From positions 960,001 to 992,000 of the forward strand of contig NZ_CP026606.1 of the NCBI RefSeq assembly GCF_002945325.1: a stretch of 32,000 nt of DNA. The letters are read 5' to 3'. The stretch is from Methanococcus maripaludis. Lineage in GTDB: Archaea; AGJL01; Methanococci; Methanococcales; Methanococcaceae. The notes beneath the pieces were generated by a model. It was not told the origin of the DNA, did no database searches, and saw only the letters and a program-made list of their open reading frames with translations. Below are positions 13,910-20,226 of the stretch, piece by piece (positions within the stretch are counted from its first letter, which is position 1; each line of letters begins with the position of its first letter). Position numbers and translations under genes: made by a program.

Positions 13910-15136
13910 TTACGAAATATCTTCTTTTGTTATCAAAACGTCCTTTAATTCCTTGGATAAAGTGTAGTATACATTATATCCATCTCTTTCTTTATAAATA
14001 TACCCCATTTCATAAATATCTGAAAGGTGTGTTCCAATCGTTCCTGTTGAATTGTTTAAAATTCCTGAAAGTTCAGTTACAGTGGAGCTTCCACCAAGTT
14101 CAGCCATTGCTTTTATTATTTTAGACTGGGCGGGTGTTAAGTGGTTTAAAATCTGGTGTCCTACACTTATCCCGAGATTTTTCATTGCGTTTCTTGCAAT
14201 TTCGTCATCTATTTCATCTACACCATTTTTAAGTCCGAGAGAAACTGCTTCAGAACATGTCATTATAATTCTTCTTGGAATTCCGTCACATTCCTCAATT
14301 ATTTTCTCGATGCTCTGTTCTGAAAAAGGTTGATATCCTTTCGCACCAGTTATTTGTGAATCTTCGAGTCTTCTTTTTATAAGATCATATGCTTCTTCTT
14401 TTGTAAGAGGAGGCATATTTATGATTTTTGGAATTCTATCTCTTATTGCAGGGGATATTTTTGTCAAATCTTCAACCATTGTTGGAGGGCCTGCTAAAAA
14501 CGTTAAAATATCATCCTCATATAAGAATGAGTGGAAAAACTGTAAAAGTCCAAGACAGCTTCTTTTTGCAAACTGGTCTGCTTCATCAATTAATATAACG
14601 CAGAGTTTGTTTTCTTCTTTTACTTCGTTTAACAGATATTTTAAATCTCTTTCAATTTTTTCACGAGGGTAGTGAACAGGCGTTTTATCACTGTAATTGC
14701 TGAGTCTTTTATAAATCTCAATTATTTTTTGAGAATGTTTCATATAGTCAGATGAAAGAGTTCCATCTACTGAAAACAGATTATCTTTGATGATTCCATA
14801 CATTAATTGTATTAAAAACTGTCTTGCAGTGATTTGTGAGGCTTCTAATTCAACAACCCAATGATTGTGTCTTTTTGAAGCGTAATACAATATATTTAGT
14901 ATCGAACTTTTTCCAATTCCTTTTGTACCAACTATTGCAGCATTTGCAACACTACCATACTGTGCCGCACCCAAAATGTCCGCAATTTCAGAAAGTTCAG
15001 AAGTTCTTCCAACAAAAAATTTGGTGTTACCCCTAATTGGTTTTTCTGAAAATGGGTTCGTTTTTAATTTTAACCTGTTCATTGATTTTTTCGATATCGA
15101 TGATGCATTATGAATAAATTCAATTGGGTCTAACAT
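13910..15136 (-). CDS. Divergent Orc1/Cdc6-like AAA+ ATPase with a C-terminal winged helix
   Basis: 408 aa. Motifs seen:
- FVGRTSEL
- Walker A GTKGIGKSS
- Walker B VILIDEADQF
- IRDRI
- PPLTKEEAYDLIKRRLE
- CDGIPRRIIMTCSEA, in a GDARkA-like sensor-2 position
- a C-terminal wH, TVTELSGILNNSTGTIGTHLSDIYEMGYI

A ggaggg RBS is present, and a TATA-like box lies about 47 nt upstream of the ATG. Confidence 0.6.
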   Translation of the reverse strand: MLDPIEFIHNASSISKKSMNRLKLKTNPFSEKPIRGNTKFFVGRTSELSEIADILGAAQYGSVANAAIVGTKGIGKSSILNILYYASKRHNHWVVELEASQITARQFLIQLMYGIIKDNLFSVDGTLSSDYMKHSQKIIEIYKRLSNYSDKTPVHYPREKIERDLKYLLNEVKEENKLCVILIDEADQFAKRSCLGLLQFFHSFLYEDDILTFLAGPPTMVEDLTKISPAIRDRIPKIINMPPLTKEEAYDLIKRRLEDSQITGAKGYQPFSEQSIEKIIEECDGIPRRIIMTCSEAVSLGLKNGVDEIDDEIARNAMKNLGISVGHQILNHLTPAQSKIIKAMAELGGSSTVTELSGILNNSTGTIGTHLSDIYEMGYIYKERDGYNVYYTLSKELKDVLITKEDIS

Positions 15137-15250
15137 AAGCCATATCCCTCCAGTATGAAAATAGTCCGAAAAGTGTCTTAAAATATATAATGAATTATCT
15201 TTTTTATAAGTTTCGAAAAACCGAAAGTTTAAAACATCTAAAATAATAAT

Positions 15251-15292
15251 ATTGTGAATATAAGTTTAAAAATAAAATAAATTGTGAATATA
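15251..15292 (+). repeat. 42-bp unit A containing two ATTGTGAATATA 12-mers 30 bp apart
   Basis: The unit reads attgtgaatataaGtttaaaaataaaataaattgtgaatata. The 12-mers are at 15251-15262 and 15281-15292. Confidence 0.9.
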
Positions 15293-15436
15293 TTATTTTT
15301 TTGTGTATCTAATTAATATAAATCCTTATTTTTAATTAAAAATCATTTTAATAAAATCAGTATATTATATAAATATATCACAATAAATATAAAATTAATT
15401 TGAATTATGAAAAATAAGGTATTTTTGTAAATATTA

Positions 15437-15478
15437 ATTGTGAATATAACTTTAAAAATAAAATAAATTGTGAATATA
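15437..15478 (+). repeat. 42-bp unit B, 41/42 identical to unit A
   Basis: The unit reads attgtgaatataaCtttaaaaataaaataaattgtgaatata. The 12-mers are at 15437-15448 and 15467-15478. Confidence 0.9.
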
Positions 15479-15648
15479 ACAAGTAATATATATTAAAACA
15501 GATTATTATTAATAAAATTACAAATTAAATATAAAAAATCAAGATACTTAAAAAAAAGAGTTTAAATCATGATTAAACTGGTAAAATATAGTAATAAGAT
15601 TAATTTTTTAAATAATATAATATATGAACTGAAATAAGATTATAAAAT

Positions 15649-17980: not shown

Positions 17981-17995
17981 GATTTTCACGAATTT

Positions 17996-20014
17996 TTAAA
18001 TTATCCTGAATTTTCCAGTCTTAGGTTCATCAATGTCCCCATTACTTTTAAGCTTTTTAATCGAAAGTAGGATATGTTCTTCATCAATTCCTTTTGATTT
18101 TCCAGCTTCTACGATTTCATCAATTATTACAAGATCGTTATCACTTTTTTCAGCAAGTGCTTTTATTAAATCATATACGCCCATCATCTTACTTCTATCT
18201 TTTTTTCCAACTCCTGAAATTTTATCGACATCAAATTGTCCGGTTTCAGGATCATATGCAGTTTCTTTTAAAGATTCAGTAATTATTGAAATGGCTTCAT
18301 TTGCGTCTTCTTCGTCAACAACATCTTTTAATTTTGCTTTTGCATGCGCTTCTGCAATACGGATTGCCGCTTCAAGCTGTCTTGCAGTAATTTGAACAGA
18401 ACCTTTTCTCATGTTTAAATAAAATTCAGTGAGAAGCTTTTCAGCACTTTCTGAAATTATTGGCGATTTAGTTTTTGCATATTCTATATATTTTATTACA
18501 AAATCCCTGTCAATCAAGACATCATCGACTATAATATGGTCGAGTTTCATATTTTTCGAAACTTCTTTACTTAAATATGCTCTATGAACATTGATAATGT
18601 GCTGTGCAATGTCTTTATCTTTTGATCGATCTGCTTCATCTTTTATCGGGAATATTAAATCAAACCTGCTCAGCATAGGTGCAGGAATATTTATCTGTTC
18701 AGGAATCGAGACATTTGGGTCAAATCTACCCCATCTCGGGTTACATGCTGCAATAATTGCACATTCTGATGGCAATTTTGCATTAATTCCACCTTTACTG
18801 ACATGTATTGTCTGAGATTCCATAGCTTCAAGAACAAATGTTTGAAGGTCCCGATTAACTGTAAGCTCATCAATACATGCAGTTCCTTTATTTGCTTTAA
18901 CTAAAAGCCCAGGTTTAATAACCCAGGTATCGTCTCCAATTTCTGTTTTTTCACGAATAACTGCAGCAGTTAAACCAACACCTGATGCAGTAGTGGCTGA
19001 CCCGTACAAATTTCCAGGAATTTCAGCAATTTTTCTAAGCATAACTGATTTTCCAATACCTGGATCAGTAATTAAAAGCAAGTGGCTGTCAGCTCTTTTG
19101 TTTCCTTTTTTAACTCCTTTAACTTGCTGTAAAAATATCGCTTTTTTGATAATTTCATAACCTTTAATTTCAGGAATCAGCCTTTCAGATAATATATCTA
19201 TTACTTTTGGATTTTTTCCAACTTTTTCGATATTTTTGATATCTTCTTCATTTAAATCTGCTTCAATTTTATCTTCTAAAACTTCACAATTAATTCCTTT
19301 AACATAAATATCATAAATCGGGATATTTTTGTTTTTCTGGTTTTTTATTGGAATTCCTGTAACTTTTACACGCCCACAATAAATTCCAGGGCTGTGTTCT
19401 AAAAATACAGTAATATATTTGGGTGGCTCTTCAGGGTCGCCCATAGAATCAAGGGGCTGTTGAACTTTAATTTCCTGAAAATCAATATATTCAGATTCGT
19501 CCTCAATTAAAGTCATATTTTGTGCACATTTTGGACATATTGGTTCAAAATAAGCTTCAAATGGATTTTCAACTTCCTGTATTTTTTTTTCGCCACATTG
19601 TGTGCATACGTAAGTTGCCTTTTTTAAGGCTGATTTTATTTTTGTCGCGATAACAATTATTCCTTCAAATTCAATCAATTTTCCAAGAGTGCCACTTTTA
19701 ATATCTTCAATAGTATAATTTTGCTTTTTTTCTGATTTATTAAATTCTTCAGGTATGTTTTTTACAGTAATTACAATATCGGGCTTTTCCGTTTTTATTG
19801 AATAATATGCATCCCTGTAACACTCTTCAAGGAGTTCTATTCCTTCTTTTGGAAATTCTTCTAAAAACTCTATAAAGTCAATTACACCATGTTTATAGAT
19901 ATTATCTATATCAATGGCTACTTTCTTTTTTTCCGAGATAATATCTTGAAAATTTAGCGTTTTTAAGCATTCTGTAAGTCTTGGCCGAATATTTTGAATC
20001 TGTTTATCATCCAT
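17996..20014 (-). CDS. mcm: Replicative helicase MCM
   Basis: Zn finger CTQCG...CPKCA, Walker A DPGIGKS, Walker B CIDEL and arginine finger SRFDL. The tracked ORF extends to 20086, but a consensus TTTATATA box (minus strand, 20060-20067) lies inside that extension. The ATG at 20014 (MDDKQIQ) has a gtga RBS. Confidence 0.92.
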   Translation of the reverse strand: MDDKQIQNIRPRLTECLKTLNFQDIISEKKKVAIDIDNIYKHGVIDFIEFLEEFPKEGIELLEECYRDAYYSIKTEKPDIVITVKNIPEEFNKSEKKQNYTIEDIKSGTLGKLIEFEGIIVIATKIKSALKKATYVCTQCGEKKIQEVENPFEAYFEPICPKCAQNMTLIEDESEYIDFQEIKVQQPLDSMGDPEEPPKYITVFLEHSPGIYCGRVKVTGIPIKNQKNKNIPIYDIYVKGINCEVLEDKIEADLNEEDIKNIEKVGKNPKVIDILSERLIPEIKGYEIIKKAIFLQQVKGVKKGNKRADSHLLLITDPGIGKSVMLRKIAEIPGNLYGSATTASGVGLTAAVIREKTEIGDDTWVIKPGLLVKANKGTACIDELTVNRDLQTFVLEAMESQTIHVSKGGINAKLPSECAIIAACNPRWGRFDPNVSIPEQINIPAPMLSRFDLIFPIKDEADRSKDKDIAQHIINVHRAYLSKEVSKNMKLDHIIVDDVLIDRDFVIKYIEYAKTKSPIISESAEKLLTEFYLNMRKGSVQITARQLEAAIRIAEAHAKAKLKDVVDEEDANEAISIITESLKETAYDPETGQFDVDKISGVGKKDRSKMMGVYDLIKALAEKSDNDLVIIDEIVEAGKSKGIDEEHILLSIKKLKSNGDIDEPKTGKFRII

Positions 20015-20059
20015 TATTTTCACAAATTTTCTGGTACCTTTCACATATGTTACCAGTAC

Positions 20060-20067
20060 TATATAAA
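20060..20067 (-). promoter_or_regulatory. Consensus archaeal TATA box (TTTATATA) for mcm
   Basis: The plus strand reads tatataaa. The box is 46 nt upstream of the ATG at 20014. The TATA-like box upstream of the Orc1/Cdc6-like gene has the same geometry. Confidence 0.55.
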
Positions 20068-20226
20068 TTTTTGAAGTTATTTTCAAAAGTTAAAATTTAC
20101 TAATTTAATATTGAACAATTCCTTAAAAATGCATTAATTATCTAAAAAATGGTTTTTAAAAGTTTTTAACAAAAAGTAAGAATTATATATTCGAAAATTC
20201 AATATTATAACATATGGGGTGATACA

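Follow-up and report, generated by a model that had tools for sequence, protein, structure and literature searches.

Origins of replication (oriC) in archaea are recognized by a site adjoining an orc1/cdc6-type gene, AT-rich DNA that can be melted, and conserved inverted repeats flanking it. The oriC of Pyrococcus combines two 34-bp inverted origin recognition boxes (ORBs) with multiple 13-bp mini-ORBs and two AT-rich regions (PMC1904270). Sulfolobus oriC1 places inverted initiator sites around a DNA-unwinding element (DUE), in the order ORB3-DUE-ORB2 (PMC12141716, PMC5333045); it also needs an extra motif, ucm, read by a small protein, UBP, that contacts MCM, and the authors of that work ask about analogous factors in other lineages (PMC12141716). 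Canonical Orc1/Cdc6 is unrecognizable in Methanococcales and Methanopyrus, MCM genes have multiplied in Methanococcales, and the start of replication in both groups has been called 'an intriguing unknown' (PMC3984812). Here we describe a 32,000-nucleotide stretch of Methanococcus maripaludis DNA (assembly GCF_002945325.1, contig NZ_CP026606.1, positions 960,001 to 992,000 of the forward strand; hereafter the window) in which three genes, referred to as A, B and C, lie beside an MCM helicase gene and are separated by two AT-rich spacers, gap 1 and gap 2. The locus has these three features, and we read it, with a probability of about 0.6, as the M. maripaludis oriC region together with its initiator genes, arranged as a bipartite origin.

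Zhang and Zhang reportedly made an in-silico prediction of oriC next to MJ0774 in 2004, and gene A belongs to the MJ0774 family. The basic prediction of an origin at A is, in outline, already known as an in-silico one: the family was named 'Mc-pRIP' and proposed as the Methanococcales initiator, and predictions of an oriC adjoining its genes covered M. jannaschii and several species besides, strains of M. maripaludis included (DoriC 5.0, PMC3531139; Gao 2014, PMC4009838). Methanococcales genes of this type have been seen as highly diverged orc genes (PMC5333045, PMC4390880) and, in a contrary view, as a non-orthologous replacement (PMC3914693); the Orc1/Cdc6 proteins of Thermococci and of class I methanogens, both fast-evolving, group together (arCOG00472, PMC4390880). 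A cdc6-like gene close to those for MCM and the PolD large subunit DP2 was noted in M. maripaludis by Berthon et al. (PMC2643942). A literature search on MMP0027-0033 and MJ0772/0773 returned nothing beyond the DoriC/Z-curve papers. New relative to PMC3531139, PMC4009838 and the other literature found are a two-module layout shared by the order, defined motifs for arms and boxes at set distances, the core copy at the promoter of A and the conserved partnership of B and C. The initial annotation of this DNA had stated that recognizable Orc1/Cdc6 was long considered missing from Methanococcales, a group with no experimentally defined origin known, and the literature bears this out (PMC3984812, PMC5333045, PMC1904270).

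Gene A (13910-15136, minus strand) encodes a 408-aa divergent Orc1/Cdc6-type protein with AAA+ and winged-helix domains. Gap 1 (15137-15746, 610 bp) separates the divergent starts of A and B. Gene B (15747-16268, plus strand; 173 aa) has a spacer on either side and is read in the direction of gap 2 (16269-16897, 629 bp), on which the 3' ends of B and C converge. Gene C (minus strand; 360 aa) extends from 16898 to an ATG at 17980 or a GTG at 17989, placing its start 6-15 bp past the MCM stop codon (17996-17998). Gap 1 abuts A, and gap 2 is 1.1 kb from A, beyond gene B. The MCM gene (17996-20014, minus strand) has a Pfam MCM domain at E=4e-73, and the gene for DP2 (28990-32000, plus strand) starts about 9 kb from it and runs past the end of the window; we include it as context only. 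Every component that the initial annotation had listed, from A and its five 12-mers in a 610-bp gap through B, the 629-bp gap with its 29-bp inverted repeat, C and MCM to PolD some 9 kb on, is found where it had been placed. Only the far end of the island shifts: MCM itself is confirmed, but it probably starts at the ATG at 20014, giving 672 aa as in its orthologues, and not at the TTG at 20086.

The four island proteins are identical to M. maripaludis entries AVB76461-AVB76464, and their counterparts in strain S2 are CAF29586 (MCM), CAF29587 (C), CAF29588 (B) and Q6M184 (A). CAF29586 is the MCM known as MMP0030, which is cited, in a passage of PMC3984812, as having been reported essential; judging from consecutive accession numbers, C, B and A would correspond to MMP0031, MMP0032 and MMP0033.

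Orthologous loci of 13-21 kb were compared from M. maripaludis C5, M. vannielii, M. voltae, M. aeolicus, three Methanothermococcus genomes, Methanotorris igneus, and Methanocaldococcus with related metagenome-assembled genomes. The candidate origin-binding initiator among the proteins is A. Its Walker A (GTKGIGKS) and Walker B (LIDEADQF, with DEAD) motifs are invariant across 16 orthologues, and Pfam AAA_16, AAA and AAA_22 all match above their cut-offs, indicating an intact AAA+ core. The C-terminus carries an ArsR-type winged helix (HTH_5, E=1.4e-8, residues 335-382), which the structural model renders as three helices and a beta-hairpin wing at 380-393. In sequence comparisons, the orc1/cdc6 model TIGR02928 matches A with 23.9 bits (E=1.7e-5) over positions 90-302 only, and a profile of A run against PDB sequences reaches Cdc6 only at E=0.1. 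In structural comparison by Foldseek against the PDB, the best matches of the A model are 2v1u_A, 1w5t and 2qby (E 6e-11 to 2e-9, about 400 aligned columns), with ranks 1-7 held by A. pernix ORC1/ORC2, S. solfataricus Cdc6-1 and Drosophila Orc1 (E 6e-11 to 3e-10, 390-440 aligned columns). The predicted three-domain fold of A is thus closest, over its full length, to solved Orc1/Cdc6 structures, in keeping with the initial annotation of the 408-aa protein as Orc1/Cdc6-like. Motifs and modeled structure place A in the Orc1/Cdc6 fold class; the curated sequence model does not. Within the order A evolves slowly, with 68-84% identity from Methanococcus to Methanocaldococcus (68-70% against the Methanocaldococcus orthologues), which implies a core function.

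Gap 2 (16% G+C) contains an imperfect 29-bp inverted repeat in which about 25 of the 29 positions match. The B-side arm (16338-16366, minus strand), an ORB-like candidate, consists of the core CGAAAACCCGAAA at 16339-16351 (minus strand) followed inward by CATGTATATA; the C-side arm, TATATACATCATACTCGAAACACCGAAAA (16671-16699, plus strand), has its core at 16686-16698. Between the arms lies a 292-bp AT-rich core (16373-16664) of 11% G+C, a candidate DNA-unwinding element. G+C falls to 7% at 16440-16640, no other stretch of the window goes as long without G or C as the 50 bp at 16545-16594, and the least stable 100-bp segment of the entire 32 kb, at 16502-16601 (4% G+C), lies midway between the arms. 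Indeed, the four least stable 100-bp segments all fall within the two gaps, gap 1 holding the second to the fourth.

The arms, but not the sequence between them, are conserved. The core, CGAAAAC(C/T)CGAAA, occurs in exactly two good copies per genome in gap 2, always inverted, and the arms are inverted in 14/14 genomes. With its inner flank the arm reads ATATACATACATGCnACTCGAAAACYCGAAA, of which 29-33 bp are conserved from Methanococcus to Methanocaldococcus. The spacing of the arms is 334-352 bp in 13/14 genomes, a count that takes M. voltae (363 bp) as within range, and 615 bp in M. vannielii (locus L011, 7108-7863); the interior keeps its length while its sequence is not conserved. A 28-nt degenerate pattern of the arm was found only at the gap 2 arm sites among 16 loci, and none of 2.9 M viral contigs contained it. 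A search of 241 M metagenome records recovered 17 stretches, 12 of them Methanococcales spacers between C and B and five of them single chance-like matches in unrelated G+C-rich contigs. Judged by its architecture, gap 2 has the form ORB-DUE-ORB, although the arms fall outside the ORB class by sequence. Two other identities for the repeat were considered and rejected. A structured RNA is contradicted by the lack of any Rfam match in the gap and by the 11% G+C of the interior, against more than 50% for rRNA in the same genome. A miniature inverted-repeat transposable element or other mobile element is contradicted by the orthologous site in all genera, an interior that keeps length and not sequence, the lack of dispersed copies of the arm pattern, and the weakness of the PHROGs matches.

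Several further arm-related sequences were noted. In the lineages of Methanotorris and Methanocaldococcus only, a second inverted pair, TTGTGATAAT / ATTATCACAA, is nested between the arms, about 55-60 bp inward of each (loci L014, L002, L003, L005 and L007; for example at ~5557 and ~5789 in L014). It resembles the short boxes of gap 1 described below, is represented by a half-site in M. aeolicus, and is absent from Methanococcus and Methanothermococcus; TTGTGATAAT is likewise absent from the window. In most genera a third core copy, TTTCGAGTTTTCGG, oriented as the neighboring arm, lies within the last codons of C, where it encodes the conserved C-terminus FRVFG (L002 8252-8264, L004 8251-8263, L007 8335-8347, L010 8266-8278, L013 7102-7114, L014 5325-5337); in M. 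maripaludis this copy has decayed (FLIFG). Finally, an arm-like sequence, TTTCGAGTTTTCGGGTAGCATATAC, whose core is one mismatch from the gap 2 arms, is present at 28545-28569, just past the 5S rRNA and a T-run; it precedes the gene for RNase P RNA (28581-28819) by 12-36 nt. It could be a chance occurrence, a promoter element or an extra site for the arm-binding protein.

Gap 1 (13.9% G+C) carries a different set of repeats. Five exact copies of ATTGTGAATATA, all on the plus strand, are present against 0.53 expected by chance, a count that 0/100 shuffles reached, and a search tolerating one mismatch turned up no further copy in the 32 kb. Boxes 5 (15251-15262) and 4 (15281-15292) form the A-proximal pair, 30 bp apart; boxes 3 (15437-15448) and 2 (15467-15478) form a second pair with the same 30-bp distance, 186 bp from the first; and box 1 (15649-15660) stands alone, with a TATA-like element directly following it, about 85 bp from the start codon of B, and likely overlaps the B promoter. 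This arrangement of one single box and two pairs, with 30-31 bp within a pair and about 186 bp between pairs, recurs across the order, and gap 1 aligns colinearly throughout. The distances of the boxes from the B start (~90; ~272 and 303; ~459 and 490) are nearly invariant, conserved within a few bp. The order-wide box consensus is (T/C)GTGAAT(A/C)(A/T)A; in 14 genomes, 37 strict boxes lie in gap 1, on one strand only, and six lie elsewhere in about 246 kb, a 167-fold enrichment. Compared by eye, boxes and arms match at 9/12 positions in M. maripaludis and poorly in Methanocaldococcus, a likeness that is unconvincing in such AT-rich DNA and on which we make no claim.

Two additional elements of gap 1 are conserved. 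Midway between the box pairs, a central block (15337-15400) found in all genera contains a TATA-like TTTATATA with palindromic flanks and, at 15373-15384, a degenerate box in inverted orientation, ATATATCACAAT. One copy of the arm core, CGAAAAACCGAAA (15214-15226, plus strand), stands in the A promoter beside a TATA-like element, some 77 bp ahead of the ATG; a core-like copy is present 9-218 bp upstream of A in the genomes examined, and 40-100 bp upstream in most. Both motifs thus connect gap 1 with gap 2, and the presence of this copy in the A promoter suggests autoregulation by an arm-binding factor and marks it as a candidate autoregulatory site. As variants of the spacer, M. aeolicus (L013) has the longest gap 1 (767 bp), with about 150 extra bp just upstream of A that include tandem AATATTCAATA repeats, and the boxes of M. 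vannielii (L011) contain ATGAAT in place of GTGAAT.

These properties raise the question of which spacer is the functional origin. One answer is gap 1: the five 12-mers would be mini-ORB or iteron sites of A, first unwinding would take place in the AT-rich DNA that separates the box pairs, aided by negative supercoils that the divergent promoters of A and B generate, and the arms of gap 2 would be an auxiliary cluster (compare the Pyrococcus dp1 ORB cluster), a titration or regulatory site, or a barrier to forks or transcription. Gap 1 lies directly upstream of the orc-like gene, the canonical place, and next to the family gene that published oriC predictions adjoin (PMC3531139, PMC4009838); its five repeats are strictly oriented with order-wide fixed phasing, and it contains three of the four least stable 100-bp segments. 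However, the boxes all point one way, whereas characterized bidirectional MCM loading in archaea uses inverted ORBs around the unwinding element (PMC12141716, PMC4010727). The least stable segment and the only long inverted repeats are in gap 2, and gene regulation explains part of gap 1, since box 1 and the core copy are at the B and A promoters. We therefore regard first unwinding at gap 1 as rather unlikely. Gap 2 is our tentative choice for the site of first unwinding, at odds somewhat short of even, and the remaining probability belongs to both gaps acting together or to neither.

The promoter-proximal position of box 1 and the core copy would also fit a transcription-regulatory hub. In this alternative, the three proteins would act as regulators, either ArsR-type or STAND-like, the boxes and arms would be operators for A, B, the MCM-C operon or antisense transcripts, and replication would begin elsewhere or be driven by recombination. 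A, B and C all carry an ArsR-like winged helix-turn-helix (wHTH) and have regulator annotations, the RNase P RNA gene is preceded by an arm-like sequence, and the CGAAA units of the arm core resemble the archaeal TFB-recognition element (BRE). Gap 2 nevertheless points the other way: lying between two 3' ends, it needs no promoter, yet in all genera it keeps its size, its ~30-bp arms, their ~340-bp spacing and its extreme AT-richness, which favors an origin over regulation. Moreover, spacers of 600 bp far exceed the usual archaeal regulatory regions, the arm pattern is unique to the locus, and the best structural neighbors of A are full-length Orc1/Cdc6 proteins. Linkage to MCM, and in M. maripaludis also to DP2, fits a replication island (PMC2643942). 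A purely regulatory role strikes us as improbable, even with the marker-frequency result on M. jannaschii, discussed below, counted in its favor.

The gene order C-[gap 2]-B (reverse)-[gap 1]-A-MptA-ATP-grasp-TFE is kept in all compared loci, across the five genera sampled, except that of Methanocaldococcus indicus, as are the sizes of gap 2 (457-756 bp) and gap 1 (601-767 bp), at 12-25% G+C. Both repeat sets are present in the orthologous gaps of related species, and the candidate origin and initiator island outlined in the initial annotation, with its repeats, gaps and extra DNA-binding genes, accordingly extends across the order, M. indicus excepted. In Methanococcus, Methanothermococcus and Methanotorris, C follows immediately on MCM, making co-transcription of the two genes, as initially proposed, plausible in these genera; the proposal does not carry over to Methanocaldococcus, where a tetrapyrrole methylase gene, not MCM, precedes C.

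Gene B encodes an N-terminal ArsR-like wHTH, a beta-rich middle region and an invariant C-terminal WWCxxCxxxxCxH, whose four CCCH residues are putative zinc ligands. Orthologues occupy the same position in 13 other genomes. The protein evolves fast, with 32-41% identity between genera, and a word-indexed search found close relatives only.

The C family is an orphan, apparently confined to Methanococcales; a profile search of 1.84 billion representatives, a library without taxon names, gave 13 matches, about seven of them real. The structural model of C is confident (predicted local distance difference test [pLDDT] 82.5, predicted TM score 0.76) and comprises an N-terminal alpha/beta region of uncertain fold, a helical region and a C-terminal wHTH. 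The winged helix is backed by many structural and Pfam wHTH matches, and it is the only part that aligns when the C and A profiles are compared by hhalign (probability 82%, E=1e-5). The N-terminal 245 residues gave no AAA match in Pfam or NCBIfam, searches with the PDB sequence profile and Pfam returned wHTH only, and hhalign of residues 1-245 against the ATPase region of A gave a probability of 0.2%. By Foldseek the C model finds the ORC subunit 8zp5_B (1.4e-3) and A. pernix ORC1 2v1u_A (1.8e-3), as well as Apaf-1 and Orc2, all with low TM scores, and three family members weakly match Hda_lid (E=1.3e-3). The conserved motifs PSLKKT, LVFDxHD and SxGNLxII can, as a matter of interpretation, be taken for remnants of Walker A, Walker B and lid motifs; PSLKKT resembles a P-loop but is without its second glycine, and the acidic pair of Walker B is absent. 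Where the initial annotation had called C a catalytically degenerate Orc-like protein, the winged helix is solid and the Foldseek values of about 1e-3 are borderline, while sequence and profiles give no AAA+ signal in the N-terminal 245 residues. On the strength of its model, a degenerate Orc-like identity for C is possible but not established.

The restricted distribution of C bears on the history of the locus. Much as in the capture of Sulfolobus oriC3/WhiP, B, C and the two spacers, perhaps with A, could be a replication module captured from a plasmid or virus by an ancestor of the Methanococcales, a scenario compatible with origin function today. Among viral structures, the C model comes closest to a 'plasmid replication protein' from a haloarchaeal phage (E=1e-4), and P0037, a metagenomic C-like fragment of 321 aa, carries a phage-integrase Pfam domain. 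Methanococcales MCM paralogues are tied to mobile elements, and archaeal origins have been described as captured replicator-initiator pairs (PMC5333045, PMC4010727). The base composition of the island would also agree, with 16-24% G+C across 15000-17500 (2.5 kb), including the coding sequence of B and the 3' half of C, where neighboring genes have about 30-35%; this may reflect either origin AT-richness spilling into genes or a foreign segment. The island in the window, however, contains no integrase, att sites or other mobile-element genes, PHROGs matches are weak and non-specific only, and the viral contigs lack the arm pattern. Synteny with the housekeeping genes MptA, TFE and CobB is stable across the order, and the MCM next to C is the core one, which is essential (PMC3984812). 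We judge such a capture unlikely, if less so than a purely regulatory hub. Separately, the locus of the single-cell genome Methanothermococcus sp. SCGC AD-155-C09 (L010) has a 1.4-kb insertion free of open reading frames (ORFs) between MCM and C (5826-7221, 23% G+C); together with the integrase domain of P0037, it hints at occasional insertion of elements at the MCM-C junction.

The data presented above have led us to propose a model for origin function whereby ATP-bound A would bind both arms of the inverted repeat, using them like ORBs oriented toward the AT-rich core, and would then recruit MCM hexamers head to head across it. Binding of A to the arm-core copy in its own promoter would provide autoregulation. 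The 12-mer boxes of gap 1 may be bound cooperatively, in iteron or mini-ORB fashion, by A or by the winged-helix proteins B or C, and this binding would set both origin firing and the expression of B and A. C, presumably expressed from the MCM operon in three genera, could act as an MCM-linked accessory factor or loader-adaptor. In its fullest and more speculative form, which we hold to be doubtful as a whole, the model envisages a lineage-specific set of three initiator proteins, with A as the ATPase, C as an inert Orc-like protein or adaptor and B as a wHTH/zinc protein, acting on a bipartite origin made of arms around a ~300-bp unwinding element and of phased, oriented boxes. Such a division of labor would be analogous to that of eukaryotic ORC/Cdc6/Cdt1 and independently evolved.

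A number of observations weigh against reading the locus as an origin. Under the twin-domain model, convergent transcription at gap 2 should build positive supercoils and disfavor melting, and it is gap 1, not gap 2, that has the canonical position upstream of the orc gene between divergent promoters. The arm-like copy upstream of the RNase P RNA gene and the BRE likeness of CGAAA mean that the arm motif may be partly transcription-related. These organisms are highly polyploid, and relatives such as Thermococcus are able to replicate without their origin. With regard to A, its score against TIGR02928 is far under the curated threshold (23.9 versus 181.3 bits), its AlphaFold model is moderately confident (pLDDT 65.5), and RuvB and HslU also score well against this model, ranking after Orc1/Cdc6. 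A search for the canonical Pyrococcus ORB/mini-ORB TTCCAGTGGAACT with up to three mismatches gave 16 matches versus 9.4 expected, which is at chance level, with none in either gap. In M. indicus (L009, 8870-11218), A is not flanked by B, C, arms or MptA, and its immediate upstream neighbor is a 369-aa ORF; this genome must either carry the origin-like module at another place or have lost it. The order contains no experimentally validated origin, that of M. jannaschii being in-silico only (PMC5333045 table 1, PMC3984812), and a passage of PMC1904270 cites marker-frequency analysis as having found no single origin in M. jannaschii. A Z-curve of M. maripaludis S2 was inconclusive (PMC3984812), and local GC skew in the window tracks gene strand and is uninformative on replication.

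Beyond the island, the window brings together within 32 kb the genes for TFB (6032-7051), TFE (11306-11863), MCM and DP2, an rRNA operon and RNase P RNA. A long spacer of about 800 bp (5230-6031) lies upstream of the TFB gene, with only a doubtful 112-aa ORF (5675-6013) inside. An Rfam scan of the window at gathering thresholds returned rRNAs, a tRNA, 5S and RNase P RNA only, with no match in either gap.

The analysis turns the bare prediction of an oriC near MJ0774-like genes into hypotheses at base-pair level in a genetically tractable organism, with explicit candidates: two arms of about 30 bp, five boxes of 12 bp, one promoter-proximal core and three proteins beside an essential MCM. If the origin reading is true, the locus would define a new class of ORB and new accessory initiator factors, show how far Orc proteins and ORBs can drift, and supply parts for replicating methanogen vectors. 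If it is false, a conserved, promoter-less inverted repeat with ~340-bp spacing still needs explaining.

The closest earlier descriptions are the DoriC-type predictions of an 'Mc-pRIP-adjacent' oriC, which concern the same gene family and the same locus; the Methanocaldococcus orthologues adjoin MptA, as here. Leaving the 2004 paper aside, these predictions are in silico (PMC5333045) and come without a motif, the two-module architecture, a role for B and C or conservation across the order.

At the level of the proteins, the inert AAA+-like subunits of the eukaryotic origin recognition complex (Orc2; PDB 8zp5_B, 7jgr_B) share with C the order of alpha/beta region, helical region and winged helix, the matches being borderline. 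Unlike those subunits, C stands at E ~1e-3 and a TM score of ~0.18, has no AAA+ Pfam match and shows no profile similarity to the ATPase region of A.

Gap 1, in turn, recalls the iteron-type origins of plasmids, in which short one-way repeats in helical phase and an AT-rich region adjoin the gene for an autoregulating winged-helix initiator. The boxes likewise share one orientation and, within a pair, stand 30-31 bp (about three helical turns) apart. Unlike iteron origins, the locus is chromosomal, its five boxes form two pairs and a single with ~186 bp between pairs, and an AAA+ initiator is present.

Gap 2 shares with Sulfolobus oriC1 the placement of inverted candidate initiator sites around a candidate unwinding element, the boxes would parallel its extra, non-ORB motif with a small MCM-contacting accessory protein, and WhiP of Sulfolobus oriC3 offers a precedent for a winged-helix initiator other than Orc1/Cdc6. 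Here the element is longer (~290 bp versus ~100 bp), and the accessory genes, restricted to the order, are part of the origin region itself.

Pyrococcus oriC (PMC1904270) offers close parallels. Unlike in Pyrococcus, the repeats are unrelated to the TTCC...GAA core of the ORBs, and it is not obvious that the short boxes derive from parts of the long arms. Between the clusters stands the gene of the small wHTH/zinc protein B and not cdc6, gene C is an extra partner, and the long-repeat module lies between convergent 3' ends instead of upstream of the initiator gene. To this extent only, the locus deserves the terms 'non-canonical' and 'organised differently' that the initial annotation gave it: its repeat sequences, the interposed B and the partner C all differ. 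The layout itself does not: inverted arms of ~30 bp take the place of the 34-bp inverted ORBs, short boxes and two AT-rich spacers that of the mini-ORBs and AT-rich regions, and in both cases two repeat clusters flank a gene, MCM and PolD genes are nearby, and the arrangement is conserved, across Thermococcales in the one and Methanococcales in the other.

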